The notes: generated from the letters alone by a model not told the origin. Numbered from the stretch's first letter, positions 1 through 22,469 are shown. The stretch: 37,872 bases of DNA from Candidatus Omnitrophota bacterium (GCA_043798045.1 JAZDPD010000034.1:1-37872); one strand, 5' to 3'. A program made the numbers and translations.

Positions 1-1933
1 TGATAGCTCGAACAAGACGATCAAACAGCGGACTAACCCCACGAAATACAATTTCCTGCAATACTTCTGCCTGTGGCAACTCTGTACCAATCACATCAAT
101 GCGTGGATTAAGCGCGCTTAAGAACTCTTTCATGTCAATGGTCGTTTGCGGAGGGCTCCCCACCCCGACATCAATGACTGTATAATCACCGCTCGTAAGA
201 TCAACCCCGGTAATTTTCCTGAATTGAGGATGAACAAGCAATGCCTGGACATCGACATTCCTTCCGGCATGCGTGTATTTTGATGTTACAAAAGATTTAT
301 CGTACTGCGCCTGATCTTTCGTTTCATCCATATTGCTGGTTTGTTCCTGTTGCTTTCTTAATAACACCTGGGCCTCTTCGGAAATTTCAACCGTATCCAC
401 AGGATTAACATACGGATTCACAATCTTTGCTTCTTTCAAAGGTTTCTTGTTTAAATCAGATTTCTTTCCATGAGAATATGGTGGCAAATTCTCACCCAAA
501 GCTTCTGCCGGAGATTTACGCCTGATGGATGAAGCAGCATGATCCACCACCATGGAAGCATCAACCTTAAATACCGACCCGACCGGCTTGATTCCAGCCG
601 CATTGTCCGACCTGGTTAAATCAAAATCATAAAACTTTTCTCCACCAGAGAAATATTGGCGGGGTTCACCTTGGTGCGGTAAAAGGTTGGCGACCTGGGT
701 TGTCTCACCTTGTACAGGGCGGACACGTGGGTCCGCCCCTACGATATCCGCAAGTAGTGGCGGCTCATGATCCGCCACTACACCCTCGGATATATAATTA
801 TAAACGCCATTTTTATAGGCCGCGATATATCTCTGATATATCTCTTCTTTAAGCGTTTTCTCATCTGTGGTCACGCCATGAATCATATTCTTCCCAACGT
901 AAACATCGGTCAACAATGTGTTTTTGATCTTCTCTCGGTACCATTTGGCCAGGATCGCTGCATGGTAGATCTGTCGGATGGGGGCAAAATTCTTTCCCTC
1001 GTTGATTTCGTTTTCGATGGCGGGGACAATAACCTCACGTAAAATATTCTTGGCTAATTCCTGGGATGGCTCAATCTGCCCAATGGCATCTATGCCTAAT
1101 ATATGGCCGGCACGGGGGCCGGCCACTGCATTCAACCCCTCAGATGCACGGGCGGCCCCCTGTGGCCGCCCTTTACTCATGGCAACATAATCAGAATCCA
1201 ACAATACTTTTAATCTTGCTTGTGTCACATACACCGCGTTCTCCTTCTCAAAAACCTCTGACTTATCGGGCATGATCCAGACTTTATTGAACGTATCCAC
1301 CGGAATATCTGTCGTCCCGTATTTATCCATGGCCGCGGCATAGACCTTATCCCAGAACTGTTTGCCCAACCCTTTTTCAGGATAAATGAGTGACGCGATC
1401 AATTGTTTTAGTAAATAATCCTGGGCGAGCATATCCCGCCCTAACACGGTCTCGCCAAGATCCTTTTCAATCACACGGTCTTTTTCATGCGGGGAAAGGT
1501 TGACCCATAGGTCTTTTTCAGGAACGGTGAGCGCGGCGAGAAAATATTTTGCCATCTTTAAAGTTTCTTGTTCAATCGTATTTTGGTGAGGCATGCGGTC
1601 GACGCCCTGGGTCGCTTTCGTATCCGTCGCTAGTTTGGGTGGCAGCGTGCTTGGGGACACGTACCCTTCGGGTACATGTCCCCGGGTTGGCAGCGCAGAA
1701 ATATTTCCTGAGTCCACGATAAAGTCAAAATTTAGCGGCCTGTCAGGATGTATCACCATCCCCTTAACAAGAACGGGTGTAAATGACGCTGACCTGTTAA
1801 CCATCATGCCCGGCTCAGGCAGTTGTGCAACAAACAGGCTTTGGGCATAAGCAAATTCTGGACGGATCAGAAAACTGACTACAATAATCAGCACCATCAT
1901 CTGTCGGCAAAATTGGATCATCATATTATTCAT
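1..1933 (-). CDS. Sec-signal multidomain protein, paralog of the adjacent 1648-aa gene. The 3' end runs off the window (644 codons visible).
   Basis: It is absent from the ORF track because it has no in-window stop. Hand translation of the minus strand from the ATG at 1931-1933 (alternative ATGs at 1922-1924 and 1919-1921) is stop-free down to position 2. The N-terminus MNNMMIQFCRQMMVLIIVVSFLIRPEFAYA|QS looks like a signal peptide. Nt ~638-1810 align with the N-module of the 1965..6911 protein (FLAALTVPEKDLWVNLSP, GTTDIPVD.FNKVWIMPDK, NAVYVTQA.LKV.LDSDY, ENE.NEG.NF, RQYFSGG). The tail (nt 1-637) is unrelated to the neighbour and contains VIDVGVGSPP...DVIGTEL, a weak class-I methyltransferase-like motif. 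Confidence 0.75.
   Translation of the reverse strand, partial: MNNMMIQFCRQMMVLIIVVSFLIRPEFAYAQSLFVAQLPEPGMMVNRSASFTPVLVKGMVIHPDRPLNFDFIVDSGNISALPTRGHVPEGYVSPSTLPPKLATDTKATQGVDRMPHQNTIEQETLKMAKYFLAALTVPEKDLWVNLSPHEKDRVIEKDLGETVLGRDMLAQDYLLKQLIASLIYPEKGLGKQFWDKVYAAAMDKYGTTDIPVDTFNKVWIMPDKSEVFEKENAVYVTQARLKVLLDSDYVAMSKGRPQGAARASEGLNAVAGPRAGHILGIDAIGQIEPSQELAKNILREVIVPAIENEINEGKNFAPIRQIYHAAILAKWYREKIKNTLLTDVYVGKNMIHGVTTDEKTLKEEIYQRYIAAYKNGVYNYISEGVVADHEPPLLADIVGADPRVRPVQGETTQVANLLPHQGEPRQYFSGGEKFYDFDLTRSDNAAGIKPVGSVFKVDASMVVDHAASSIRRKSPAEALGENLPPYSHGKKSDLNKKPLKEAKIVNPYVNPVDTVEISEEAQVLLRKQQEQTSNMDETKDQAQYDKSFVTSKYTHAGRNVDVQALLVHPQFRKITGVDLTSGDYTVIDVGVGSPPQTTIDMKEFLSALNPRIDVIGTELPQAEVLQEIVFRGVSPLFDRLVRAI
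717..738. repeat. GC-rich palindrome GGGCGGAC-ACGTGG-GTCCGCCC, in frame inside a CDS.
   Basis: An 8-bp stem pairs 717-724 with 731-738. It is translated as GADPRVRP, a segment absent from the homologous position of the paralog at 1965..6911. Confidence 0.8.
754..781. repeat. GC-rich palindrome GTAGTGGCGG-CTCATGAT-CCGCCACTAC, in frame inside a CDS.
   Basis: A 10-bp stem pairs 754-763 with 772-781. It is a near copy of the element at 21347-21374, with a compensatory T/A versus G/C change in the stem. It is translated as VVADHEPPLL. Confidence 0.85.
1104..1125. repeat. GC-rich palindrome TGGCCGGC-ACGGGG-GCCGGCCA, in frame inside a CDS.
   Basis: An 8-bp stem pairs 1104-1111 with 1118-1125. It is translated as VAGPRAGH, inside a segment inserted relative to the paralog. 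Confidence 0.75.
1150..1171. repeat. GC-rich palindrome GGGCGGCC-CCCTGT-GGCCGCCC, in frame inside a CDS.
   Basis: An 8-bp stem pairs 1150-1157 with 1164-1171. It is translated as GRPQGAAR, inside a segment inserted relative to the paralog. Confidence 0.75.
1653..1683. repeat. Palindrome GGGGACACGTACCC-TTCG-GGTACATGTCCCC, in frame inside a CDS.
   Basis: 12 bp pair with one mismatch (C1660/A1676). It is translated as RGHVPEGYVSP, in a segment with no counterpart in the paralog. Confidence 0.75.
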
Positions 1934-1964
1934 GAAAACCTTTTCAACCTTAAACAATACGCAT

Positions 1965-4900
1965 TCAATAACTAATGTTCATAAATTCTGCAAGCGACGT
2001 TCTTAAAGGGATGATATCCACGATCATCGACTTTAACCCAAGAAGCCGTGACATTTTCTGAACCATGCCTGAATCGGCCACCACACGATCTTCTACCCTA
2101 TCCAGACCCGCCTTCATGTGCCGGCGGGCTTGTGCCAAATCAATACCACCTGTATTTTCTGCATGATCTGTTCCTTGTTGCAGCAAAAGGCGCTTGGGCA
2201 GAACCTTGACCGTTACCTGCACCCCGTCTCTATTTTCCAGAAATGGCTCTGTCAAATAATGAACATCTCCTGATTCCTGCATTTTCTGGAAATCAACATC
2301 TTTCACCACATCAGGCAAAAAATCCGGCACCATCCACCACATATTAAACCTTAAATTCTTAAACCTTCGGTCATCCTGCCCTACGATCACACCATAAGAA
2401 CCGTTAAAACGAAACCATTTCCTTAATGCCTCCATTTCACGCATGTTCATCCCGAAATTCGACCCAGCCAATCCTCCAATGATCCCGCGTATTTTTTGAA
2501 TATCCTCTTGGGGAATTTCCGGCGAGAGCATTTCCATGGTTTCATTGCCATTTACGTCAAAACGCACCAGCGTCCTGCCCCCGTTCACATACATCAACAA
2601 CCGTTTCAGATCCCCAACCCCATTAAGAGGCGCAGCGATCCTGGTCGTCTGCATAACCCTGGAATTCGCTGATATAATCCCCACCGGGAATTGAGCCAAA
2701 AAACGGACAAATTCTTTCCCCACTAAAGAATCCGGTAAAAGGTCATCTTCCCTTTTATTGATTATTGTCCCATCCACATCAAAAAGGGCTATGCCTTGGC
2801 CGATCAGTTCTTTCAGAGGAATCGTTACACTTTTGCCGGAATCCATTCCCTCTCCCTGGATCGTAACGTCAGTCAGATCATCCGCTATCGCATCAGCAAT
2901 GCGCCGCATTACGCGGGCCGAGGCCTCTTCTCCGGTCCCCACCCAGATCGTCGCTTCCCTGGCCAACTTCGAACGCTCTTCAGGATCGTCATCAACAGAG
3001 AAAACAAGTACCTTTCTTCCTCCATCCTCCAGAGATTTCTTCTTGTGCACCACGCTCATATCATTTCCAAAGGCAAAGAACTCATTACCAAAATACAGTA
3101 CTGTTTTTAATGCCGGATTTCCTGCCATAACCATGCCAACAACATCGCCTTTATTGTAATTCTCTGATGCAATATCTATGGCCCCGAATCCTCCTGGCTC
3201 AAATAAATAGCGCCCATTGAACTCCTTACGCAAAACATCAATAATCTTCCCCCTAAGATCCCGTGAAGATTTCATCCAGGCCGCGGACGCATTGCGATGA
3301 TCCACATACAAGGACCCCGATGCAATTTCATCCCTGACCACACGCGGCAAATATATTTTATGTCGGTCAATATCACGTATATTCGAAGAACTAATAGAAT
3401 TTTCAGACAACCCGATCACGGTCACCGGGAACAATCTCGATCCTCCTGTAATAAAGCCCTGCAAACCATGCGGTGTGGTATCCGTCAAACGCAACCCTGG
3501 GGCAACCCGCTCCAAAGAAAAATCAGTACGTTTAGCAACAACAAAATTAACATCAGAATCCTTCTTATTCCCGTCAGGGAATAAATCCAGCAGCGCATCC
3601 CCGGCTACTTTGGCATGCCGCTCCAGAGCATCACTGCCGCTTAAAAAAAACATTTGGAGCCCCTTCACCCCATCATTCAACCTCATATGCTCCAGTGCCT
3701 GCGCCATCGGTAAAAGATCACCGCGGTCCATGCCAACAGGAGAATACTTTATTAAGGGAAAAAACGGCGCAATGGCGCTCTGAACAAGGTGATGCCGCAA
3801 CTCGACATTGAGTTTGTCATCTTTATACCCGTTGATATCCCCGTTAGGTGACACCACAAGCAGGCTGTTATACGTATTGATAAACTCAAGCCAGAAATTG
3901 ATATGCCCCCAATGCACAGAATCAAATGTCCCGGGCGCAACGCCTATCCTAACCTGACGGGAAGAAGCTTCAGCTGCCGGCAAATCTTCTAAGGGACCTA
4001 AACGAACAGGCATATTCAGATCAAAGGTCCCGTTATCAATTTTCTTTTTAATGGACGATAGATTCTTTTTAATATTCGCAACAACCGCCCTTATATCCTG
4101 ACGGACCGCAGCATCCATTTCCTCTTCTATTTCTTCTTCGGCCGGCAAAGATCTTTCCATCTTCTCAAAATCAATGACCTGCTGCGCGTTATCAGCCACA
4201 ACAGCAACATCCCCTGCCGCATTCTTGAGCGTAGCTGCGACAGGAAATTCAGGTAAATCAAAACCATACGCCTCAAATGCCTCGCCGAAGCTGAGCGCCC
4301 CGCCGATACGAAAAGGAATATACCCTTTAAGCAAGCCTGAGCCACGGGTGATCTTTTGAGCCTCCGCAATATTGAACAACCCGATACCATTTTCTTTCAA
4401 GAATCTCTGCAATTCTTCAGGTGTGTTGGCCACCGCAACAGCATTTGTATTGGACCCACCCCCGCCGACCATAAATAAGCCGATATTATTCTGTTTTGCC
4501 TTTGCCACCACATCCTCTGAATAAAATGAATACAAGCTGATCTTCTTAAGGCCATCTTTATATGTATTATAAAAATCTGAGAGCACCGGGTCCTGTTTCA
4601 AGAACGCAGCATACCTATCGGCATATGAAGGGCGCTCCGGTGAGCCTTCCGGCATCAGGGCCAACTCAAACCAGCGAAAATTAAGTTCATCCCGGATGTC
4701 CATATATCGATTCATGCTATCAATGACACCTTGCATGTCCCTGGCCTTCAACGCTGCGGCAAATTGATGCGCCAGCTGTATACGCTCCCTGTACAATTTC
4801 AAACCAACAGGGTCCATATCCGCCAAAAGGTCACGGCCCATAACACTCGTCACTTCAGCCGTCCTTGGATGCGCGTAACCACCATTGATAAATTCTTTCC

Positions 4901-6911
4901 CAAGCTGGATAAATGCCATCCGCGATTCAAAATACAGATAATCTTCTTCACGGATGATGTCCCGCGAAAATACCTCATCACCGAACAAACGCGCCCCTTC
5001 AGGAGATGTCAGGCTTGAAAGCCAGACATTTTGATAAACACCCCCCAATACATATGGAAAATGCCCCTGCCCTCCGGTAGCCCCGTCAAAAACATTATTT
5101 TCCAAATACGTGGCCCGGTTATAAATATCGGCAAAACTCCAACCAGCACCTTTAAGGATACTGGCGAGCATTAACTCCGCAGCCAGCATCACGCTCGAAC
5201 TCTCCACACCTCCGGCCAAAATGGCCGGATGCGAAACCCGCACCGAAATCTTGATCCCAGAGATCTGAAATAAGTTCTGAAATATATACGCACCTGAACT
5301 GGCCAATCCTTTGGGAATAAACACTTTTCTGTCAGTAAACGGCAATGGCCCATACACCACATAAGGCTGCTCTTCCGGAAAACCATAGTCTTCTGCCACA
5401 TACACCGTTGCCTGAGGATCGTCAGCCGCCTCTAAAGCAACTTCTATAAAAAGATCCTGGTGGGAAAAAGTTAACGTGGAAGGGATCTCTTCAAATGCAA
5501 TAAGGCCTTTTTTAGTGATCAAGTCACGACGATCATTCTTGTCAAGCCCCGATCCTGGGCCATCAAAGGCCCTTATCGGAAGCTTAACCATAAGCCTTTT
5601 CCCATCATTTTTCATGTGCAGCAAGATATTCCGGATCTCTTGCGACGATCTTATCCCTGCATAAATGCCCGTATCATCCCGCACCACAGCTTCACGGGGT
5701 TTAAACAAAACACCCGTTGCTGTTTCCTGGGCCGCATCACTGCGGATGCCAACAGGCTCAAGATCACTGACCACGATCATGGCGCGATCAGGGTCGATCC
5801 CGGATAACAGGCCATCGTCACGGGTACGGCCCATGATCTGGCGCACGCCTTCCCCGGAAAACCCGCCGGAGAAATATTGACGGGGCTCAGAGCCGTCATC
5901 CCGGATAAAATTAAAAACGCCATGCTGAAAAGCCTGCACATACCGTGACCAAATTTTCTCGCCAACATGTTTGTCCTGGATCTCAATGCCGGATATTTTT
6001 TCCTGGTCTACATACGCCACCCCTAATAATGACGAACGAACCTTATCTTTAAACCATACCGCCAGAATAAGGGCATTGTAGATCTGTCGTAACCGCGCAA
6101 AATTTCTGCCTTCGTTAACCTCGTTTTCAAGGACAGGGATGATGATCTCGCGAAGAACAGATTTGCTCAACTCAGACGTAGGGGCGAACCTTGTGTCCGC
6201 CCCTACAACAGCATGAGACATTGCCTCATAATCAGAATCGAGCATCACCTTAAGCTTCGCCTGGGTAACATAGACGGCATTATCTTTTTCAAAAACATCA
6301 GCCTTGTCGGGCATGATCCATACCTTATTAAAAGCATCAACCGGGATATCGGTCGTGCCAAATTTAGCTTGAGCCTGCGCGTATACTTTCGCCCAAAATT
6401 CTTTTCCAATTTTATCGTCGGGATTAATAATGGAAGCCGTTATCTGTTTGAGGATGTAATCCTGTGACAACAAGTCGCGCCCCATTTCCGTTTGACCCAG
6501 CGCATCGGGCACAATACGATCTTTCTCATAAGGAGACAAGTTGACCCAGAGGTCTTTCTCCGGAACGGTCAATGCCGCAAGGAAATACTGGATAAGACGG
6601 TTGACATCATCATTAAGGGCACTGCGGGCGGTTCGCACATTTGACGCATCATCTCCTTGATCCAATACAAAATCCAAGCGGAAAGGATTATCAGGATGGA
6701 TCTTAATACCCTTAAGCAGCACCGGCATGAATGCAGGGCTTAAACCCACAGCCACCCCTGGTTGGGGCAGCTGGAACACTTCCTGGGCCAGAGAACACCG
6801 AGGTCCTCCAACATCCAGCATCAGAAAAGACGCCGTAACAAATGCGGAAACTATTCTGCGACAACGACTTATTGAATGAAAAATCATGCCCAAAACCTCA
6901 GCTGCCATCAA
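1965..6911 (-). CDS. Giant (1648 aa) exported multidomain protein: shared N-module, GHMP-kinase-like domain, HxGH/ISxxxIR nucleotidyltransferase and HAD-IIB-like phosphatase.
   Basis: One uninterrupted ORF. The codon at 6909-6911 is TTG. An ATG lies at 6906-6908, and the ATG at 6885-6887 has GAGG 8 nt upstream, so it is the likeliest start (MIFHSISRCRRIVSAFVTASFLML...SLA|QE, signal-like). Motifs: GHMP motif II-like AGGVESSSVMLAAEL (nt 5187-5216); fucokinase/HddA-like LENNVFDGATGGQGH; motif III-like VGGGGSNT (4446-4469); GTFDSVHWGH (3903-3932) plus ISSSNIR (3375-3395), the cytidylyl/adenylyltransferase superfamily signature; HAD motif IV-like YFGNEFFAFGND (3060-3095); HAD motif I FDVDGT (2766-2783). 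Confidence 0.85.
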   Translation of the reverse strand: MMAAEVLGMIFHSISRCRRIVSAFVTASFLMLDVGGPRCSLAQEVFQLPQPGVAVGLSPAFMPVLLKGIKIHPDNPFRLDFVLDQGDDASNVRTARSALNDDVNRLIQYFLAALTVPEKDLWVNLSPYEKDRIVPDALGQTEMGRDLLSQDYILKQITASIINPDDKIGKEFWAKVYAQAQAKFGTTDIPVDAFNKVWIMPDKADVFEKDNAVYVTQAKLKVMLDSDYEAMSHAVVGADTRFAPTSELSKSVLREIIIPVLENEVNEGRNFARLRQIYNALILAVWFKDKVRSSLLGVAYVDQEKISGIEIQDKHVGEKIWSRYVQAFQHGVFNFIRDDGSEPRQYFSGGFSGEGVRQIMGRTRDDGLLSGIDPDRAMIVVSDLEPVGIRSDAAQETATGVLFKPREAVVRDDTGIYAGIRSSQEIRNILLHMKNDGKRLMVKLPIRAFDGPGSGLDKNDRRDLITKKGLIAFEEIPSTLTFSHQDLFIEVALEAADDPQATVYVAEDYGFPEEQPYVVYGPLPFTDRKVFIPKGLASSGAYIFQNLFQISGIKISVRVSHPAILAGGVESSSVMLAAELMLASILKGAGWSFADIYNRATYLENNVFDGATGGQGHFPYVLGGVYQNVWLSSLTSPEGARLFGDEVFSRDIIREEDYLYFESRMAFIQLGKEFINGGYAHPRTAEVTSVMGRDLLADMDPVGLKLYRERIQLAHQFAAALKARDMQGVIDSMNRYMDIRDELNFRWFELALMPEGSPERPSYADRYAAFLKQDPVLSDFYNTYKDGLKKISLYSFYSEDVVAKAKQNNIGLFMVGGGGSNTNAVAVANTPEELQRFLKENGIGLFNIAEAQKITRGSGLLKGYIPFRIGGALSFGEAFEAYGFDLPEFPVAATLKNAAGDVAVVADNAQQVIDFEKMERSLPAEEEIEEEMDAAVRQDIRAVVANIKKNLSSIKKKIDNGTFDLNMPVRLGPLEDLPAAEASSRQVRIGVAPGTFDSVHWGHINFWLEFINTYNSLLVVSPNGDINGYKDDKLNVELRHHLVQSAIAPFFPLIKYSPVGMDRGDLLPMAQALEHMRLNDGVKGLQMFFLSGSDALERHAKVAGDALLDLFPDGNKKDSDVNFVVAKRTDFSLERVAPGLRLTDTTPHGLQGFITGGSRLFPVTVIGLSENSISSSNIRDIDRHKIYLPRVVRDEIASGSLYVDHRNASAAWMKSSRDLRGKIIDVLRKEFNGRYLFEPGGFGAIDIASENYNKGDVVGMVMAGNPALKTVLYFGNEFFAFGNDMSVVHKKKSLEDGGRKVLVFSVDDDPEERSKLAREATIWVGTGEEASARVMRRIADAIADDLTDVTIQGEGMDSGKSVTIPLKELIGQGIALFDVDGTIINKREDDLLPDSLVGKEFVRFLAQFPVGIISANSRVMQTTRIAAPLNGVGDLKRLLMYVNGGRTLVRFDVNGNETMEMLSPEIPQEDIQKIRGIIGGLAGSNFGMNMREMEALRKWFRFNGSYGVIVGQDDRRFKNLRFNMWWMVPDFLPDVVKDVDFQKMQESGDVHYLTEPFLENRDGVQVTVKVLPKRLLLQQGTDHAENTGGIDLAQARRHMKAGLDRVEDRVVADSGMVQKMSRLLGLKSMIVDIIPLRTSLAEFMNISY
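6178..6206. repeat. GC-rich palindrome GTAGGGGCG(AAC)-CTTGT-(GTC)CGCCCCTAC, in frame inside the giant CDS.
   Basis: A 9-bp perfect stem pairs 6178-6186 with 6198-6206, extendable with one mismatch. It is translated as VVGADTRFAPT. It sits at the same alignment site (after DSDY.AMS) where the paralog carries different palindromes. Confidence 0.8.
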
Positions 6912-8665: not shown

Positions 8666-9715
8666 TCATTTAAATATCCCCTGCAAATTCGGATCCGTGT
8701 CCATGATCCTGATCAGATCATCCGTATGATCCTTTTCAGACAAGATCGTATAAAAATCATTCTTGATCGTCGGCGCCATCTTGATGGCATCGATCCATTC
8801 CTGCCGGATAAAAGGATCTTTCTTGATCTCATCCCAAAAACCGGTATTCGTGAAAAGTTCAGCAATGCGATCCGCGCCGCGGCCCTGCAGCTGGCTGATC
8901 ATGTAAGTCGACACACCGACCTGAAGCCCATGCAGCCGCGGTTTGACTGTCAGCTGATCCAAAGCATGCGAAATCAAATGTTCACTACCGCTCGCAGGAC
9001 GGGATGTGCCACAGATCTCCATGGCCACACCGTTTAGCATGAGCGCTGTTCCCAGAAGACGAATCCCCTCCAGGTCATGATCAGGCTTGGCCATCAACTG
9101 AAATACTGTCGCATCCGAAAGGAGGGCTGCAAAATCATCCACCTGCGTCCCCTTCTTTTTATAGGCCAACTTCCAGTCATAAACAGATGTGATCTTGGCC
9201 ACAGAATCCCCGACCCCCGCCAGCCACAACACACGCGGCGCGCCTAAACAAACCTCTGTATCGATCACAACGCCATACGGCATGGCCGCCGGAAAAGACC
9301 TTTTCTTCCCTTTAAAATCAAGGCTGCACTGAGGAGAACAGAACCCGTCATTAGAAAGGGCTGTGGGCAGGGCAAAATACGGCAGCCTTGTAAGATAGGC
9401 AACATATTTGGCCACATCCAGCGCCTTGCCGCCGCCAATCCCGATGATCACATCTGTTCTCTGCGGCAAAGCCTGAAAAATCTCCTGTGCCTGCTCAAAA
9501 GTCGATGCTGTCACCGCTATATGCTCAAGCGTACCCACCCCGTTGGACGCCAGACTCCAATCCACCCGATCAATGAGCGTCTTATCCAATTCCTTGTTAA
9601 AAACAAGTGTGGCATTCTGAAACTGCCCGCGCTGGGCATAAACACCCACCCGGTCCAAAGCCCCAGGCTTGATCCGCACAAGTGTTGGAATAACAATCGA
9701 TGTATTTCTCATCAT
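8666..9715 (-). CDS. sn-glycerol-1-phosphate dehydrogenase-like protein (AraM/EgsA family, iron-ADH/DHQS fold).
   Basis: 349 aa. GIGGGKALDVAKYVA nucleotide-binding loop, LSNDGFCSP, DWKLA and SRPASGSEHLISHALD (metal-binding His pair). These are all blocks I recall from archaeal G1P dehydrogenases and B. subtilis AraM. ATGA overlap with the upstream HAD gene. Confidence 0.7.
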   Translation of the reverse strand: MMRNTSIVIPTLVRIKPGALDRVGVYAQRGQFQNATLVFNKELDKTLIDRVDWSLASNGVGTLEHIAVTASTFEQAQEIFQALPQRTDVIIGIGGGKALDVAKYVAYLTRLPYFALPTALSNDGFCSPQCSLDFKGKKRSFPAAMPYGVVIDTEVCLGAPRVLWLAGVGDSVAKITSVYDWKLAYKKKGTQVDDFAALLSDATVFQLMAKPDHDLEGIRLLGTALMLNGVAMEICGTSRPASGSEHLISHALDQLTVKPRLHGLQVGVSTYMISQLQGRGADRIAELFTNTGFWDEIKKDPFIRQEWIDAIKMAPTIKNDFYTILSEKDHTDDLIRIMDTDPNLQGIFK

Positions 9716-10371
9716 AAAATATTCTCCCGGATCAATGCCTCACCCACTTCATTCCAGTGATCAAAAGGCCTGAATCCTTCACCGATCTCATGCAGTTTCT
9801 TGGCCAACCAGCTTTTGGCAAACCGCCTTTCCGGTGGCACCAAAAGTGCCGCCGCCAAATCAGGCCGGCCATCGCCAGCAAACGCCACACAGGAGGATAC
9901 CTTGATCGCCTCACGCACCACCGCCACTTTATTAACGCCCAGTTCAGCAGAAAAGAACGGAGACGGTTCCGGCAACTGCATCACAAGACCCTGTTGAGGC
10001 AAGAAAACACCGGGATTGGCATAAACAGTAAGCATGACACCCTCTTTGGCCAACAATCTCTTGATATACCAGTCACATCCCGCAGACGCCACCAACACAT
10101 CCCACCCGGTCTGGCGAAGCGCATCCACACAAGGCCTGATCCGCGAACATATCTGCATCGATGCAATGATTTCAAGAAGACGTTCCTCCGAAGCACGGAT
10201 CCCGGCAAAAATAAGCCGCAAGGCTTCAAAATGTGTTATCTTGCCGCTTTCATATTGCTGCCAGTACCCGCCGGAAATTTCAGGAAAAGCCTGACAAACA
10301 AGGTCATAAAAATCATACTGCGTGATCGTGCCGTCAAAATCAGAAACAAGGATACCTTTGACCTGTGTCAT
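9712..10371 (-). CDS. HAD-IB phosphatase, MtnX/phosphoserine-phosphatase-like.
   Basis: DFDGTIT motif I, SAGCD (motif II region) and AGDGRPD motif IV. C-terminal FAKSWLAKKL...F..W.EV resembles the MtnX tail. ATGA overlaps at both ends (10368-10371 and 9712-9715). Confidence 0.8.
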   Translation of the reverse strand: MTQVKGILVSDFDGTITQYDFYDLVCQAFPEISGGYWQQYESGKITHFEALRLIFAGIRASEERLLEIIASMQICSRIRPCVDALRQTGWDVLVASAGCDWYIKRLLAKEGVMLTVYANPGVFLPQQGLVMQLPEPSPFFSAELGVNKVAVVREAIKVSSCVAFAGDGRPDLAAALLVPPERRFAKSWLAKKLHEIGEGFRPFDHWNEVGEALIRENIL

Positions 10372-10820
10372 AACCCGTACACTTTCATATAATGTCCGAA
10401 ATTCCTTTGAATATACTCATGCGGCAAACGGCAATCCTTGGCACCTTTTAGAATCTTCTCCAAATACAACCGTGCCGGCATGCCTGTGGGTTGTGCCTCC
10501 CGGCCATAAATACTGGCCTCGACCCTGGATCTGGCATCCGCATCCCCAACCTGAAGCGTAAAGCGCTTAAGATATTTAGGATGCCCTTCATCCACATCAA
10601 TGCTATTAAAATCTTGCGCCGTAACCTCAAATAGCCCCCCCCAAACCTCATCATCCATGGAATTATCAATATTGACCACAGCCCCGTTCCAGCGTGTAGA
10701 ATACCCGTCGAAGAAAAGCGCGTACCCTATCAAGGCTGCAGGCCTTATGAACTTTGCCCCTGGACAAAGCGTGCGCATGAGGTCATGATTCATATTATGC
10801 CCATAAGTGAAATAAAACAT
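10368..10820 (-). CDS. Gamma-glutamylcyclotransferase / AIG2-like family protein.
   Basis: N-terminal FYFTYGHNMN (YGSNL-type motif), WGGLFEV and DEGHPKYLKR. Size is 150 aa. Confidence 0.75.
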   Translation of the reverse strand: MFYFTYGHNMNHDLMRTLCPGAKFIRPAALIGYALFFDGYSTRWNGAVVNIDNSMDDEVWGGLFEVTAQDFNSIDVDEGHPKYLKRFTLQVGDADARSRVEASIYGREAQPTGMPARLYLEKILKGAKDCRLPHEYIQRNFGHYMKVYGL

Positions 10821-13996: not shown

Positions 13997-14766
13997 TTCT
14001 TTACCTTTTTCTGCCCAATCACAGGCTCTCCAAACCGCAACTCGATATATTTTACCTGTTCAAGATCAACCCCCCCGCGCGTCAAGACATCCGCCAAGGT
14101 CTTCAACCGCTGGAGCAGATGCTCTTGATCCATAATGACCTGAAAAACAGCTCCGTCTTTTTCGAGATCACATGAAATCCTCGCTGGATCATCCACACGT
14201 ACAGACGAAAGGACAATTCCTGGAAGACGCCCATCCTGATTAAAAAACGCGATAATATCAAGGCCGGTTTTGACATGATCGTCACTAACCCTTGCACCGG
14301 CAACCGCATGCTGGTTTTTCAATCCCCTGATAACCGTAAGGGCCGCCTGGTCTTTGAAAGGAGCTCCCATGAAGAAACCGTTGCGGTCAATCACCCAATT
14401 CCTGTTATCCAAAACAACCCAGGCAAACGGATCGCGACGTATGGCTGTCACATAAAGCTGATCCGGAAACCGGCGCATGACACGCAAACCCGATAATTGC
14501 GGGTATTTCAGGCGGATCTTGGCCTCAACCCTGGCAAGATCAACATCAAAAATATTCTGCCCCTTGAGTTTTAACAGCTCTTGAACTTCCAAAGGCTGAA
14601 GGCTTTCTGCCAGGGAAATATCCCGCACGACAAAAAGCGCGGAAGAACGCAAAAAAGCCAACGCCCCCATCATAAGGAGCGCAGCACCTAATAAAAAGAT
14701 ACAAACAAGCCCGACAATACGGATCCTGTCAGGATTTAACGACAGTTTCTGCTTTTTTCTTGCCAT
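13993..14766 (-). CDS. ftsQ: Cell division protein FtsQ/DivIB.
   Basis: A basic N-terminus and one TM helix (IVGLVCIFLLGAALLMMGALAF), followed by a POTRA-like segment. Position is between ddl and ftsA. Confidence 0.85.
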   Translation of the reverse strand: MARKKQKLSLNPDRIRIVGLVCIFLLGAALLMMGALAFLRSSALFVVRDISLAESLQPLEVQELLKLKGQNIFDVDLARVEAKIRLKYPQLSGLRVMRRFPDQLYVTAIRRDPFAWVVLDNRNWVIDRNGFFMGAPFKDQAALTVIRGLKNQHAVAGARVSDDHVKTGLDIIAFFNQDGRLPGIVLSSVRVDDPARISCDLEKDGAVFQVIMDQEHLLQRLKTLADVLTRGGVDLEQVKYIELRFGEPVIGQKKVKK

Positions 14767-17089
14767 ACGCCATATCTACCAACGTTAAACAAAGTTGTGT
14801 AAAATCAATCCCCGCCGCACGCGCTGCCTTCGGCAAAAGGCTTGTGGCCGTAAACCCCGGGATCGTATTGATCTCCAGAACATACGGTTTTTCATCCTCA
14901 CCCAGAAGCACATCCACACGACCAAAACCTTCACATCCCAGCGCCTGATACGCCTTAAGGGCCTCCTGCTGAACCTGCACGGTGACCTGATCAGAAATTA
15001 TAGCCGGAACAATATACTGGGTCGCCTGGCTTTGGTACTTCGCCTGAAAATCAAAGAAATGATGGTCATCCGCCGCCTTGATCTCGACAACTGGAAGTGC
15101 TTTCTCCCCGAGAATGCCGACCGTCAATTCCCTTCCTTTAATAAATTGCTGAATGACAATATCATCCCCGTAAACAGCCGCCTTCTCAACAGCTGCCGCA
15201 AGTTCCAAACGGTCGAAGGCAAGATTCACGCCGATGCTCGAACCTTCACACGCGGGCTTGACAACCACTGGGAACCCCCCCAGACGGGAAATAACCTGAT
15301 CCATATCAAAAACTACCCTTGCATTAACCAGAACCGTCGCTGGTGTTAGCACTTTATGATCTTCAAAAGCTTTTTGTGTCGCGCCTTTATTGAATGCCAT
15401 GAAACTGGCCAAAGACCCACAGCCATTATACGGAATAGCGCATTCATCCAAAACAGCTTGAATACCGCCATCTTCGCCAAAACGGCCATGAAGCGCAATA
15501 AATACGACATTGATCTTTTCTGCCTTGACCCAAGCCTTAATGAGCTCTTTTTCCTCGCTAACTATATCCAGCGACCTGACGCAACAACCGGCATTCACCA
15601 GGGCGTTGACAACCGCAGCCCCGGAACGCAAGGAAACCTCGCGTTCTGAGGAACAGCCTCCCATGATAACCCCGATCACCCCGTTGTCCTGAGCCCCAGC
15701 CCGGCGGTCAGTAAGACGTGAAACCAGCGCATCAGAAATCTGCGTCACATCACCCGCTCCCAGAGTCAACACCAAATCCCCCGGCTGGACAAAAGCAGCC
15801 AGATGATCCACGATCTGGTCTTTCTTTAAATGAACAAGATACTGCGGCCGTTTTTCCTGGATCCTGGCCATAAGAGCTGCCGTTGTGACACCTTCAATCG
15901 GTTTCTCACTGGCGGCATAAATATCCATCAGGATCAAATGATCCACGAGATTAAAGGATGATGCAAATTCACTCATGAGCGCGGCCGTACGCGAATACCG
16001 GTGCGGTTGAAAGACTACGATCAAACGTTTACGATCCAGTGTTTTGGCTGTCTGTAACGTGGCGGCAATTTCCGTCGGATGATGCCCGTAATCATCCACC
16101 ACCAGGACACCATCCACCTCACCTTTGCGCTGAAACCTGCGCTGAACGCCTTGAAACGTCTTGAGCGTCTTTAAGATCACCGCCATCTCGATCTTTAGTT
16201 CAAACCCAAGCGCAACAATAGCCAGGGAATTCTGGACATTATGCTTGCCAGGGATCATCAATTCAAAACGTCCGATAAAGTTTCCTTTAAAATAGCAATC
16301 ATATGATGAGCCGGCTGAGTCCAGATGAATGTTGGTCGCGATCCAGTCATTGCCCTCACCAAATCCGTACGTAATAATACGGCGACCGCTTTTTTCCACA
16401 ATACCCCGCAACACCTTGTCGTCCCCGCAAGTGATGATAATGCCATTGGGGACAGTCCGGTCAACAAACTTGACATAGGCCTCCTGAATCTTCTCCCAGG
16501 TGTGATAATAGTCCAGATGTTCCATGTCGATATTGGTGATGATCGAAAAATGGGGCGAAAAATAAAGAAAAGATCCATCACTTTCATCAACCTCAGCGAC
16601 CATGTGGCGGCCAATGCCAAGGCTGGCATTATAATCACCCTGATTGACAATCCCCCCAATGGCCGTCGTCGGTTTTAAATCAGCATTGATCAAAAGAAAA
16701 GAAGCCATGGAAGAGGTCGTGGTCTTGCCATGCGCACCGGCCACCGTAATGCCAACCTCCTTGTTGAGCAACTGGGCCAGAAGTTCCGCACGGCGTAACA
16801 GCGGGATATGCCGGGTCACCGCCTGGAACATTTCCGGATTATCCGCCTTGATGGCGGAAGAATACACCACACAATCCGCACCATCAAGATGGCAAATATC
16901 ATGCCCGATAAAAACCGTAGCCCCCTTCTCACGAAGCTGGCGTATAAGCTCGCTCTCTTTCACATCAGAACCGCTGACCTCAAATCCCTTGGCCAGCATA
17001 AGAAGGGCAAGATTTCCCATCCCCATTCCACCGATGCCTATAAAATGGTAACGTCTGATCACTTTTTTTTCCTTACCAGTGCGTTTCAT
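14729..17089 (-). CDS. murC-ddl: Fused UDP-N-acetylmuramate--L-alanine ligase / D-alanine--D-alanine ligase.
   Basis: 786 aa. The MurC part (nt ~15700-17089) has HFIGIGGMGM, GAHGKTTT and DDYGHHPTE. The Ddl part (nt 14729-~15690) starts IGVIMGGCSSEREVSLRSG and has HGRFGEDG, VVKPACEGSSIG and EINTIPGFT. Confidence 0.93.
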   Translation of the reverse strand: MKRTGKEKKVIRRYHFIGIGGMGMGNLALLMLAKGFEVSGSDVKESELIRQLREKGATVFIGHDICHLDGADCVVYSSAIKADNPEMFQAVTRHIPLLRRAELLAQLLNKEVGITVAGAHGKTTTSSMASFLLINADLKPTTAIGGIVNQGDYNASLGIGRHMVAEVDESDGSFLYFSPHFSIITNIDMEHLDYYHTWEKIQEAYVKFVDRTVPNGIIITCGDDKVLRGIVEKSGRRIITYGFGEGNDWIATNIHLDSAGSSYDCYFKGNFIGRFELMIPGKHNVQNSLAIVALGFELKIEMAVILKTLKTFQGVQRRFQRKGEVDGVLVVDDYGHHPTEIAATLQTAKTLDRKRLIVVFQPHRYSRTAALMSEFASSFNLVDHLILMDIYAASEKPIEGVTTAALMARIQEKRPQYLVHLKKDQIVDHLAAFVQPGDLVLTLGAGDVTQISDALVSRLTDRRAGAQDNGVIGVIMGGCSSEREVSLRSGAAVVNALVNAGCCVRSLDIVSEEKELIKAWVKAEKINVVFIALHGRFGEDGGIQAVLDECAIPYNGCGSLASFMAFNKGATQKAFEDHKVLTPATVLVNARVVFDMDQVISRLGGFPVVVKPACEGSSIGVNLAFDRLELAAAVEKAAVYGDDIVIQQFIKGRELTVGILGEKALPVVEIKAADDHHFFDFQAKYQSQATQYIVPAIISDQVTVQVQQEALKAYQALGCEGFGRVDVLLGEDEKPYVLEINTIPGFTATSLLPKAARAAGIDFTQLCLTLVDMAYGKKKAETVVKS

Positions 17090-21322: not shown

Positions 21323-22469
21323 ACTCTCTCCATTCAAACGCTGCAAGTAGGGGCGGCTCATGAGCCGCCCCTACACACAAACGAATCTTCAATGTCGTCA
21401 ACGTAATCAACGCCAGAATAATCCCGATAATCCAGAAACGAATAACAATCTTGGATTCCTTCCAATTGATCTTCTGCAAATGATGATGATACGGCGCACA
21501 TTTAAATATTCTTCTGCCTGTTAGCTTGAATGAAGCCACCTGCAAAATTACTGATAATGCCTCCCAGACAAAAACACCCCCAAGGATACCCATTAAAAGT
21601 TCTTTCTTGATAAAAATGGCAATGATCCCCAATGTGCCGCCCAGGGCCAGCGAACCCACATCACCCATGAAAACCGTTGCCGGGTATGCATTAAACCACA
21701 AAAACCCGAGGCTGGCACCGATCATGGCCGCACAAAAAACTGTCAACTCACCTGTCCCTGGGATATAAGGAATAAAAAGATATTCACTGATGCGGATATT
21801 GCCGCTGATATAACAAAGAATCCCAAGAGTAATCGCCACCATGAGCGTACAACCAATGGCAAGGCCGTCAAGGCCATCCGTCAGATTCACGGCATTGGAT
21901 GTCCCGACAACCACAACCATGGCAAACAAGATATAGAAAGCGCCCAAATCAATGGCCAAATGCTTAAAGAACGGAACATCAAGCGTTGTACTCACATGAA
22001 GCTGGGTATAAAGAAAAAAGCTGACAAGCCCGGCAAGGATAACCTGCCATATCATCTTGGTTGATGCATTAAGCCCGCTCCTGGACTTACCGGACAATTT
22101 CAGATAATCATCATAGAAACCAAGCACCGAAAGCCATATCATCGTTAATATCGTCAGCAAAATATAAGGATTCCTCAGATCAGACCACAAAAGAACCGAC
22201 AACAGGATACTGCCAATGATCAGGATACCGCCCATTGCGGGAATATTCTGCTTGGTCTTGAGTTCTTCATTAAGCACCGTACCGCGCGCCGAATGCATAT
22301 CCTGCTTGTCCCCTAGATTCCACTCCTGCAATTTTCGAATGAACCACGGCCCGATTATTATGCACACCAAAAACGTCGTCACCGCCGCCATCCCGGCCCG
22401 GAAAGTAATGTACTTGAAAATATTCAGCGCAAAAAACTCGTACCGCAGCAACGAAAGATAATAAAACAT
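21306..22469 (-). CDS. mraY: Phospho-N-acetylmuramoyl-pentapeptide transferase, with a 23-aa palindrome-derived C-terminal extension.
   Basis: NAVNLTDGLDGLA, PATVFMGDVGSLALGG and APYHHH. The canonical end ...TTLKIR is followed by LCVGAAHEPPLLAAFEWREYGYKR, read through the palindrome. Confidence 0.93.
   Translation of the reverse strand: MFYYLSLLRYEFFALNIFKYITFRAGMAAVTTFLVCIIIGPWFIRKLQEWNLGDKQDMHSARGTVLNEELKTKQNIPAMGGILIIGSILLSVLLWSDLRNPYILLTILTMIWLSVLGFYDDYLKLSGKSRSGLNASTKMIWQVILAGLVSFFLYTQLHVSTTLDVPFFKHLAIDLGAFYILFAMVVVVGTSNAVNLTDGLDGLAIGCTLMVAITLGILCYISGNIRISEYLFIPYIPGTGELTVFCAAMIGASLGFLWFNAYPATVFMGDVGSLALGGTLGIIAIFIKKELLMGILGGVFVWEALSVILQVASFKLTGRRIFKCAPYHHHLQKINWKESKIVIRFWIIGIILALITLTTLKIRLCVGAAHEPPLLAAFEWREYGYKR
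21347..21374. repeat. Perfect 28-nt palindrome GTAGGGGCGGCTCA|TGAGCCGCCCCTAC at the mraY/murD junction.
   Basis: The sequence is its own reverse complement (14-nt arms). It belongs to the same family as 754-781 and 6178-6206. Confidence 0.9.

Follow-up and report, generated by a model that had tools for sequence, protein, structure and literature searches.

At the left end of a stretch of 37,872 nucleotides from a Candidatus Omnitrophota bacterium (GCA_043798045.1 JAZDPD010000034.1:1-37872; hereafter the window) lie two adjacent minus-strand open reading frames (ORFs), ORF A and ORF B, which, judging from their sequences, stand in tandem as paralogs of a protein family that is very large, had not been annotated before and is almost confined to Omnitrophota. 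The layout of the family consists of a signal peptide, a constant N-terminal module (the head), an FSGG motif, a variable region (the cassette), a GGIDL motif and a short constant C-terminal module (the tail). This architecture recurs in thousands of members, heads and tails covary in sequence, and the cassettes between them are exchanged. We tentatively favor the reading that head and tail together constitute a Sec-exported carrier, serving as a common handle for a shared trafficking step, and that the enzymatic cargo held in the cassette acts outside the cytoplasm of the producing cell.

ORF A (1965..6911, minus strand) is a full-length family member of 1648 amino acids (aa) when read from the TTG at 6911; translation more likely begins at the ATG at 6887, which has a GAGG 8 nt upstream. 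ORF B (1..1933, minus strand) begins at the ATG at 1933, with an AAAGG 5 nt upstream, and remains open for 644 codons until it is cut by the window edge, which is why it is missing from the ORF list. The two are separated by a spacer of 31 nt (1934..1964), in which we looked for a terminator-like site or hairpin and found none, and co-transcription of the pair seems plausible. In a BLASTP comparison, residues 14-350 of A align with residues 6-431 of B at 42% identity (E 1e-106), and the similarity stops at the motif PRQYFSGG (nt ~5862-5882 in ORF A and ~641-661 in ORF B). A hidden Markov model (HMM) of the head that was built without the window sequences matched ORF A at E 1e-164 and ORF B at E 2e-146, while all remaining ORFs of the window stayed without a match. 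An earlier note on this DNA had described two consecutive minus-strand ORFs with a 31-nt gap, a common N-terminal module of ~300 aa, and a second gene that escaped the ORF track by running off the window. The coordinates proved correct, every sequence block quoted in that note falls inside the alignment of A and B, and the second gene is indeed open to the edge. The term “giant” for both proteins was too strong, as the 1648 aa of ORF A make it large rather than giant.

The head spans 5862..6785 in ORF A (minus strand, aa 43-350) and 641..1843 in ORF B (minus strand, aa 31-431, including three in-frame inserts), ending in PRQYFSGG in both. Across the family, it is a strongly conserved module of ~300 aa with the C-terminal end (R/K)(K/Q)YF(S/A)GG. 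In an alignment of 122 sequences, ~30 head positions are invariant, many of them polar (N116, S118, E121, K147, N187, K188, D219, E256, R267 and Q268). The head had been suspected to belong to no known family, and searches of Pfam, NCBIfam, PADLOC and PDB sequences returned no match. AlphaFold2, supplied with the 122-sequence alignment, gave a confident model (predicted local distance difference test [pLDDT] 85.4; predicted template modeling score [pTM] 0.82) of long helices and two beta hairpins, mainly helical overall, for which Foldseek found no significant match in PDB (two models searched) or BFVD. No well-characterized cytoplasmic domain was matched, and the head is predicted to adopt a novel fold. 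ClyA-family pore-forming toxins (NheA, MakA/B/E, SmhA) top both PDB Foldseek lists, yet at E 0.17-0.44, with a template modeling score of ~0.1 and a root-mean-square deviation above 20 Å, so that we treat the resemblance as a lead and not as evidence. Two-partner secretion (TPS) proteins of the TpsA type were also considered: Pfam at E ≤ 1 gives no Haemagg_act domain in the head, the model is mainly helical, and no neighboring gene is recurrent.

The three inserts in the ORF B head (window 1580-1708, 1058-1177 and 662-787) are hairpin-rich and missing both from ORF A and from a B-type homolog, the second family gene of locus L081, whose head is 52% identical to that of ORF B. At the DNA level, the first insert shares 82-91% identity with head inserts in other metagenome-assembled genomes (MAGs; L022 twice, L058 and L056), even though the heads concerned are only ~50% identical as protein, and part of the third insert is also found at window 21343-21376. 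These inserts look like small palindromic mobile elements that are tolerated in-frame in surface loops.

The earlier note had also pointed to Sec-type signal-like peptides on both proteins. In ORF A, the peptide (6786..6887, minus strand) reads MIFHSISRCRRIVSAFVTASFLMLDVGGPRCSLA followed by QE, with an n-region charge of +3, a 13-residue hydrophobic core and an SLA site; in ORF B (1844..1933, minus strand), it reads MNNMMIQFCRQMMVLIIVVSFLIRPEFAYA followed by QS, with an AYA site. Both N-termini thus combine a basic n-region, a hydrophobic core of ~13 residues and a small-residue site (SLA before QE in A, AYA before QS in B). We scored this pattern with a heuristic of our own, based on n-region charge, hydrophobic run and -3/-1 site, and found it to hold among the homologs, of which 159 had an N-terminus suitable for scoring: the net charge of the n-region has a median of +2 and is at least +1 in 91%, the uncharged core has a median length of 13 residues, and a small-residue, AXA-like -3/-1 site is present in 99%. 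The flank N-terminal to the core is more positive than the C-terminal flank in 88% of 274 members. All of the 120 best homologs show a basic segment, a hydrophobic core, Pro/Gly and (S/V/A)(Y/Q)A, followed by Q/E/D, and after this cleavage-type site they carry the motif LPxPGxMVxLSPxFxPxxLKG. The N-termini of the family therefore look like cleavable Sec signals of the signal peptidase I type, which would place the mature protein outside the cytoplasm. Prepilin signals and lipoproteins were ruled out, since the N-termini contain neither a G|FTLIE motif nor a lipobox Cys.

It had been proposed that the two proteins diverge completely after RQYFSGG, and that the family joins a constant head to exchanged C-termini. 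Aligning 74 post-head regions instead revealed a conserved tail with the consensus GGIDL(T/N)..M.LQ....G..I.F..DPAM...LQNA.GF.PVIINIQPM..L..FLG, which is present in 63 of the ~76 complete members from genome loci. ORF A closes with this module (1968..2156, minus strand, running from GGIDLAQARR to GLKSMIVDIIPLRTSLAEFMNISY), and its last 62 aa are matched at E 6.2e-9 by a tail HMM for which 52 members other than ORF A were used. ORF B ends at the window edge before its C-terminus is reached; its B-type relative, the second L081 gene, carries the tail, and the similarity of that gene to ORF B extends ~30 residues beyond RQYFSGG. Because a conserved tail follows the variable part, the latter is an internal cassette and not a swapped C-terminus. 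Like the head, the tail has no match in Pfam, NCBIfam or PADLOC (searched with the minimal member P0003 and the ORF A tail region), nor, as a profile, in PDB.

P0003 is a natural member without cargo: in its 438 aa, the head is joined to the tail by 15 residues, and its AlphaFold2 model is moderately confident in the tail (pLDDT ~56-81). Head and tail identities are correlated over 23,264 pairs of members (Spearman 0.72). We infer that the cassette is an insertion between the two glycine hinges of a single head-plus-tail carrier unit. In its genome, P0003 stands in tandem with the 1110-aa B-type member (L081 2704-7425), whose cassette has 2'-5' RNA ligase-like and HAD-like matches, and the next gene encodes a GH5 cellulase.

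To estimate the size of the family, we relied on several searches of differing reach. A word-indexed search matched 885 proteins with the ORF A head and 1402 with P0003 as the query; as this search returns proteins only up to ~1.75 times the query length, the lengths of 540 aa or less found there do not reflect the true size of members. When 1.84 billion representatives of 50%-identity clusters were searched with a head-plus-tail profile, built from natural members carrying both modules, 10,297 of them matched at E ≤ 1e-3, and the stricter threshold of E ≤ 1e-30 left 6,874. The best 150 of these matches are 627-2816 aa long and mostly show two matched stretches, corresponding to head and tail. 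GTDB species representatives hold at least 586 head-encoding loci. A tail-profile search of the protein set, subject to the same length limit, returned only fragments of 39-139 aa. Many “tail-only” database entries arise as contig-edge or frameshift fragments, an example being L082 (1495-6351), a nanopore-derived contig on which a single family member is broken into ~7 consecutive same-strand ORFs, probably by frameshift errors.

The family is nearly confined to one phylum. All informative source names among the 885 head matches are Candidatus Omnitrophica or Omnitrophota, except for one 1.7-kb contig labeled Pacearchaeota. The titles of the GTDB loci likewise read Omnitrophota. The exceptions fall into four groups: Ca. 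Elulimicrobium (assigned by NCBI to the Patescibacteria group), Ca. Aceula, placeholder bins named “Uncultured Planctomycetales”, and a single Bacteroidales bin. Tandem pairs or triples such as the one in the window are common among family loci; several MAGs supply four to six of the best 80 loci, amounting with tandem copies to at least 6-8 genes per MAG, and one MAG has at least eight family locus tags. A viral origin was rejected, with only 3 loci among 2.9 million viral contigs. Those three (L083-L085, IMG/VR) encode head modules at 47-48% identity; they may be cellular contigs that were classified wrongly, or the flanks of prophages. We found no description of the head or the tail in the searchable literature.

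The region between head and tail was found to be as variable as the head is constant. Cassettes range from the 15 residues of P0003 to ~2400 residues in complete members, with a median of 627, and those that run off their loci exceed 2600. When 94 post-head regions were grouped at 60% mutual coverage, they fell into 92 architectures, which bears out the earlier idea of an exchangeable region whose cargo is not constant among homologs. Among 11,272 pairs whose head identity is 65% or more, cargo is shared in only 53, and where it is shared, its median identity is 35%, against 73% for the head. Heads that are 88-94% identical, together with tails that are 51-91% identical, surround middles that are unrelated or only ~30% identical, which suggests replacement of cassettes. 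The same holds within single genomes: six full-length paralogs from one MAG have heads that are 55-81% identical, and show cargo similarity in 1 of 15 pairs.

To survey what the cassettes contain, we tabulated Pfam domains in sets of 74, 48 and 17 members, considering the top 25 families of each. Central metabolism is represented by full-length phosphoglycerate kinase (PGK, E 1e-107), adenylate kinase (ADK), malate synthase and isocitrate lyase within one protein, Glu/Leu dehydrogenase and alanine dehydrogenase, and acyl metabolism by a set of acyl-activation, acyltransferase, dehydratase and PPTase domains. Envelope and sugar functions include LpxC (E 2e-69), the bacterial sugar transferase Bac_transf (E 5e-55), UDPGP, trehalose synthase and glucan-water-dikinase-like domains. 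In addition, we found the cofactor-dependent radical S-adenosylmethionine (SAM) and B12-binding domains, the signaling domains GGDEF, HATPase_c, Ser/Thr kinase (Pkinase) and PP2C, SAM methyltransferases and Pol-beta nucleotidyltransferases, as well as HEAT, ankyrin (ANK), WD40 and TPR repeat scaffolds. Judged by these domains, cassettes often hold several steps of one pathway. The cargo had been described as ATP- or NTP-dependent enzymes of cytoplasmic type from the window alone, and ATP-, NTP- and SAM-dependent enzymes of this type recur across the tabulated members. Two members exceed 3000 aa and are cut by the ends of their loci (L059 9051-17057 and L057 9024-17021). Of the members of this size, one carries malate synthase and isocitrate lyase, and another PPTase, AMP-binding, acyltransferase, MaoC dehydratase and HpcH aldolase domains; such proteins may grade into the “giant multi-enzyme” proteins of the phylum.

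The earlier note had read this organization as that of a polymorphic effector family. In its classical form, such a family couples a constant trafficking N-domain to exchangeable C-terminal toxins with cognate immunity proteins, and the constant head, the hypervariable part behind it, the occurrence of unrelated cargo after near-identical heads, and a sharp RKYFSGG junction reminiscent of VENN or PxxxxDPxGL are all in keeping with it. One cassette even has a weak Zeta-toxin match (E 1e-5). However, the variable part lies inside the protein, with a conserved tail behind it, and the dominant cargo consists of metabolic and regulatory enzymes and repeats, with no nuclease, deaminase, ADP-ribosyltransferase, peptidase or pore-former toxin class among the top 25 Pfam families of each tabulation. 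Furthermore, the 31-nt spacer leaves no immunity-sized gene between ORF A and ORF B, and there are no type V, VI or VII (T5, T6, T7) secretion genes among the window neighbors. In the surroundings of 80 family loci, no cluster of non-family genes recurs at more than 7 of the 80, and no conserved partner, chaperone, immunity or secretion gene was found, bearing in mind that variable immunity genes would escape the clustering. We therefore consider a classical polymorphic toxin very improbable and abandon the label, while its logic of a constant trafficking part with an exchangeable payload survives.

The cassettes of the window illustrate the enzymatic cargo. That of ORF A (2157..5861, minus strand, aa 351-1585) had been read as three cytoplasmic-type sugar/nucleotide enzymes, which is broadly right at the superfamily level, with all matches remaining below threshold. 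The first is a GHMP-kinase-like block (4257..5651, minus strand, aa 421-885) with the degenerate motif PAILAGGVESSS. It matches Pfam GHMP_kinases_N at E 0.028, the aligned site of three ORF A homologs does so at E 0.091, 0.0045 and 0.0014 (below curated cut-offs), and a profile search against PDB gave weak matches to mevalonate kinases (E 0.05-0.17). The second is a NadD/cytidylyltransferase-like nucleotidyltransferase (3294..3959, minus strand, aa 985-1206) with the motifs GTFDSVHWGH and ISSSNIR. It matches NCBIfam NF000840 (NadD) at E 7.5e-8 and Pfam CTP_transf_like at E 1.4e-3, both below curated cut-offs, and PDB NadD chains at E 0.013-0.06; with HWGH and ISSSNIR intact, we assign it as a putative HxGH cytidylyltransferase-like enzyme, at superfamily level only. 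The third, for which the evidence is weak, is a HAD-like region (2622..3266, minus strand), with matches to phosphomannomutase 2 in PDB (E 0.047), to NCBIfam HAD-IB (E 0.031) and, at the aligned site of the homolog L005, to Hydrolase_3 (E 0.038). Its order is non-canonical, as a PMM2/Hydrolase_3-like C-terminal half (aa ~1216-1288) precedes the DVDGT nucleophile motif (aa ~1375), in the L005 ortholog as well, which suggests a circular permutation or two partial domains. Together, the GHMP-kinase-like, nucleotidyltransferase and HAD-like parts could plausibly make a nucleotide-activated sugar or a related metabolite.

Among the 94 post-head regions, the only kin of the ORF A cassette are L005 (two blocks, 56% and 48% identity) and, in part, L002 and L023. 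The closest of these, L005, comes from a MAG labeled Ca. Elulimicrobium and lacks the nucleotidyltransferase segment, which shows domain-level gain or loss inside a cassette. For ORF B, the visible part of the cassette (2..640, minus strand, aa 432-644) had been described as methyltransferase-like. The motif-like residues are there, with VIDVGVGSP and DVIGTE resembling methyltransferase motif I and post-I, in a domain that is cut by the window edge; the assignment itself could not be confirmed, as neither Pfam, NCBIfam or PDB nor the 94 post-head regions or metagenome contigs yielded a match.

A rival explanation is that the N-terminal segment is an uncleaved anchor, with a sensor-like head in the periplasm and the cassette in the producer cytoplasm, so that members would be membrane-tethered enzymes or receptors acting as sensor outputs or as a metabolon. 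The cargo would suit the cytoplasm and includes the signaling outputs HATPase_c, GGDEF, Pkinase and PP2C, the family genes in the window lie among housekeeping genes, and 16 of 182 full-length members have a transmembrane (TM)-like segment within 120 aa after the head, as in a sensor-type topology. Against this, 135 of the 182 (74%), as well as ORF A and the visible part of ORF B, have no TM-like segment between head and tail, and without a second TM helix, head and cargo should lie on the same side of the membrane. Moreover, the charge distribution puts the N-terminus inside and the rest outside, and Foldseek matched the head to no Cache, PBP or 4HB sensor fold. We thus give membrane tethering only a slim chance.

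Under the carrier reading that we favor, the protein would leave through Sec, and head and tail would together make up one constant unit, with the cassette held between its two glycine hinges. This unit would be the handle recognized by one common downstream step, most plausibly type II secretion or other secretin-type machinery, or alternatively insertion into a target membrane. The cargo would then most likely act at or within the cells of a host or prey, on which these nanobacteria presumably depend. We favor this reading because the signal-peptide pattern is conserved in thousands of members, because the head is far more constrained than the cargo, as would be expected if it had to fit one invariant partner, and because the cargo depends on surroundings resembling a cytoplasm, such as exist in a host or prey cell but are not known for the producer periplasm. 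In published work, predatory or host-dependent lifestyles are proposed for Omnitrophota, and a locus for type II secretion is reported to be conserved across the phylum (10.1101/2023.11.21.568195); signal peptides have also been noted on long Omnitrophota proteins with the same Pfam repertoire as the family (10.64898/2026.06.07.730766).

Several observations weigh against the carrier reading. The export signal was called with our own heuristic, and export itself is predicted. Sec exports unfolded chains, and radical SAM, NAD(P)-, CoA- and ATP-dependent cargo, as well as LpxC and PGK, would have no obvious supply of substrate or cofactor outside the cytoplasm. No secretion gene, chaperone or partner recurs beside family genes, and the context in the window is one of housekeeping genes. 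About 17% of complete members lack the tail, which is thus not strictly required, and in the ~9% of members with a TM-like segment just after the head, the cargo would lie in the cytoplasm. Finally, the sole structural lead for membrane insertion, the similarity of the modeled head to ClyA-family toxins, is statistically insignificant.

Another rival explanation is that head and tail anchor or display the variable domains in the producer periplasm or on its surface, yielding an enzyme-decorated envelope or extracytoplasmic metabolism, with no delivery to another cell. A difficulty lies in the cargo, whose enzymes require ATP, NTPs, SAM, NAD(P)H, CoA or Fe-S clusters; to our knowledge, these are not known to be available outside the cytoplasm. 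In addition, Foldseek found no match of the head to a known wall-, lipid- or glycan-binding fold. Nevertheless, the family resembles anchoring families, which also have many paralogs per genome, dispersed or in tandem, with a signal peptide ahead of one constant module and a variable functional domain, and the very strong conservation of the head would be equally expected for one invariant envelope partner. The lack of linked secretion genes at the 80 loci also fits, and long Omnitrophota proteins with signal peptides and the same Pfam repertoire were read as surface or periplasmic proteins in a recent preprint (10.64898/2026.06.07.730766). On balance, we regard envelope anchoring as unlikely, though more probable than the other rivals of the carrier reading.

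Taking the carrier reading one step further, a phylum-specific carrier might export whole blocks of central and sugar-nucleotide metabolism, along with signaling enzymes, to a compartment other than that of the producer, as “metabolic effectors” or outsourced metabolism. Examples of such cargo would be PGK, adenylate kinase, the glyoxylate shunt and the sets of kinase, nucleotidyltransferase and phosphatase, which might be active, for instance, in the cell of a host or prey or at a shared interface. As a large arsenal, they would underlie the host-dependent way of life of these nanobacteria, and the invariant GG hinges (FSGG and GGIDL) might be sites at which the proteins are processed or released. 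This extension is speculative, and we think it rather doubtful.

By sequence or predicted fold, the family belongs to none of the systems with which we compared it, and it is unusual in having a bipartite carrier and cargo at the level of metabolic pathways. Polymorphic toxin and effector families (CdiA, Rhs, MafB) are alike in their constant N-terminal region, sharp junction motif, hypervariable downstream part and many paralogs; in the Omnitrophota family, however, the variable region is internal and closed by a C-terminal module, the cargo consists of housekeeping-type enzymes and repeats rather than toxins, the head is unrelated to TPS, RHS or LXG domains, and no immunity or T5, T6 or T7 genes were found. 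Cargo proteins with the C-terminal domain (CTD) of the type IX secretion system (T9SS) also combine a Sec signal peptide and variable domains with a short C-terminal domain common to many paralogs, but occur in another phylum; the ~62-aa tail has no match to the T9SS CTD models of Pfam or NCBIfam, and the Omnitrophota proteins carry a 300-aa head in addition. In MARTX toxins, conserved N- and C-terminal regions likewise enclose exchangeable central enzymatic effector domains, whereas their glycine-rich repeats, Sec-less type I secretion and cysteine protease domain were not detected here. SLH-domain proteins and the CWB2 proteins of Clostridioides difficile share the combination of signal peptide, constant module of ~200-300 aa and variable domain in tens of dispersed or tandem paralogs, but their cargo is of extracellular type (amidases, proteases, adhesins) as opposed to the cytoplasm-type cargo seen here, and there is no similarity in sequence or fold.

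A further comparison lies within the phylum itself. The long or giant “multi-enzyme” proteins of Omnitrophota (West-Roberts et al. 2023; 2026 complete-genome preprint) frequently have signal peptides and share the Pfam repertoire of the family, including methyltransferase, HATPase_c, HAD, radical SAM, HEAT/TPR/WD40 and sugar enzymes. They are, however, at least 10-30 thousand aa long and mostly have many TM helices, compared with 0.4-3 thousand aa for the family, and the passages of the two accounts that were searched mention neither a conserved head or tail module nor a family of this kind.

If the carrier reading is true, the family would open a directly testable route to the interactions of Omnitrophota, which are uncultivated and host-dependent, with other cells. 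It would also be a secretion or delivery tag of novel fold, found on more than 10,000 protein clusters, with which the exported “effectorome” of the whole phylum could be listed, and it may explain the modular logic of the giant multi-enzyme proteins. It also poses a biochemical puzzle, namely cofactor- and ATP-dependent enzymes, and even pathway fusions, behind Sec signals. Even if the delivery model is wrong, head and tail are two new conserved domains worth describing, as is the site between them, which in nature tolerates insertions ranging from 15 to more than 2600 residues; domains and site could also be of use in protein engineering.

Outside of the two family genes, the window is a co-directional minus-strand housekeeping array. 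It contains a dcw cluster (mraW, ftsI, murE, murF, mraY, murD, ftsW, murG, a murC-ddl fusion and ftsA), followed by queA, a small Fe-ADH_2/HAD/GGACT group, tgt, and then ORF A and ORF B; further upstream lie ribF, a gene for a DHH protein, ligA and a tRNA-Pro. The murC-ddl fusion is a single ORF of 786 aa (14729-17089, minus strand), in which a complete three-domain MurC-like Mur ligase is fused to a D-Ala-D-Ala ligase; a MurC-Ddl fusion is also known in Chlamydia. The three small genes between tgt and queA (8666-10820, minus strand) encode an Fe-ADH_2 dehydrogenase, a HAD hydrolase and a GGACT/AIG2-like protein; the first of these belongs to the same family as glycerol-1-phosphate dehydrogenases. 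Over the whole window (1-37872), nearly all substantial ORFs and the tRNA-Pro are on the minus strand, and the GC skew is negative in every 1-kb bin, ranging from -0.08 to -0.29.

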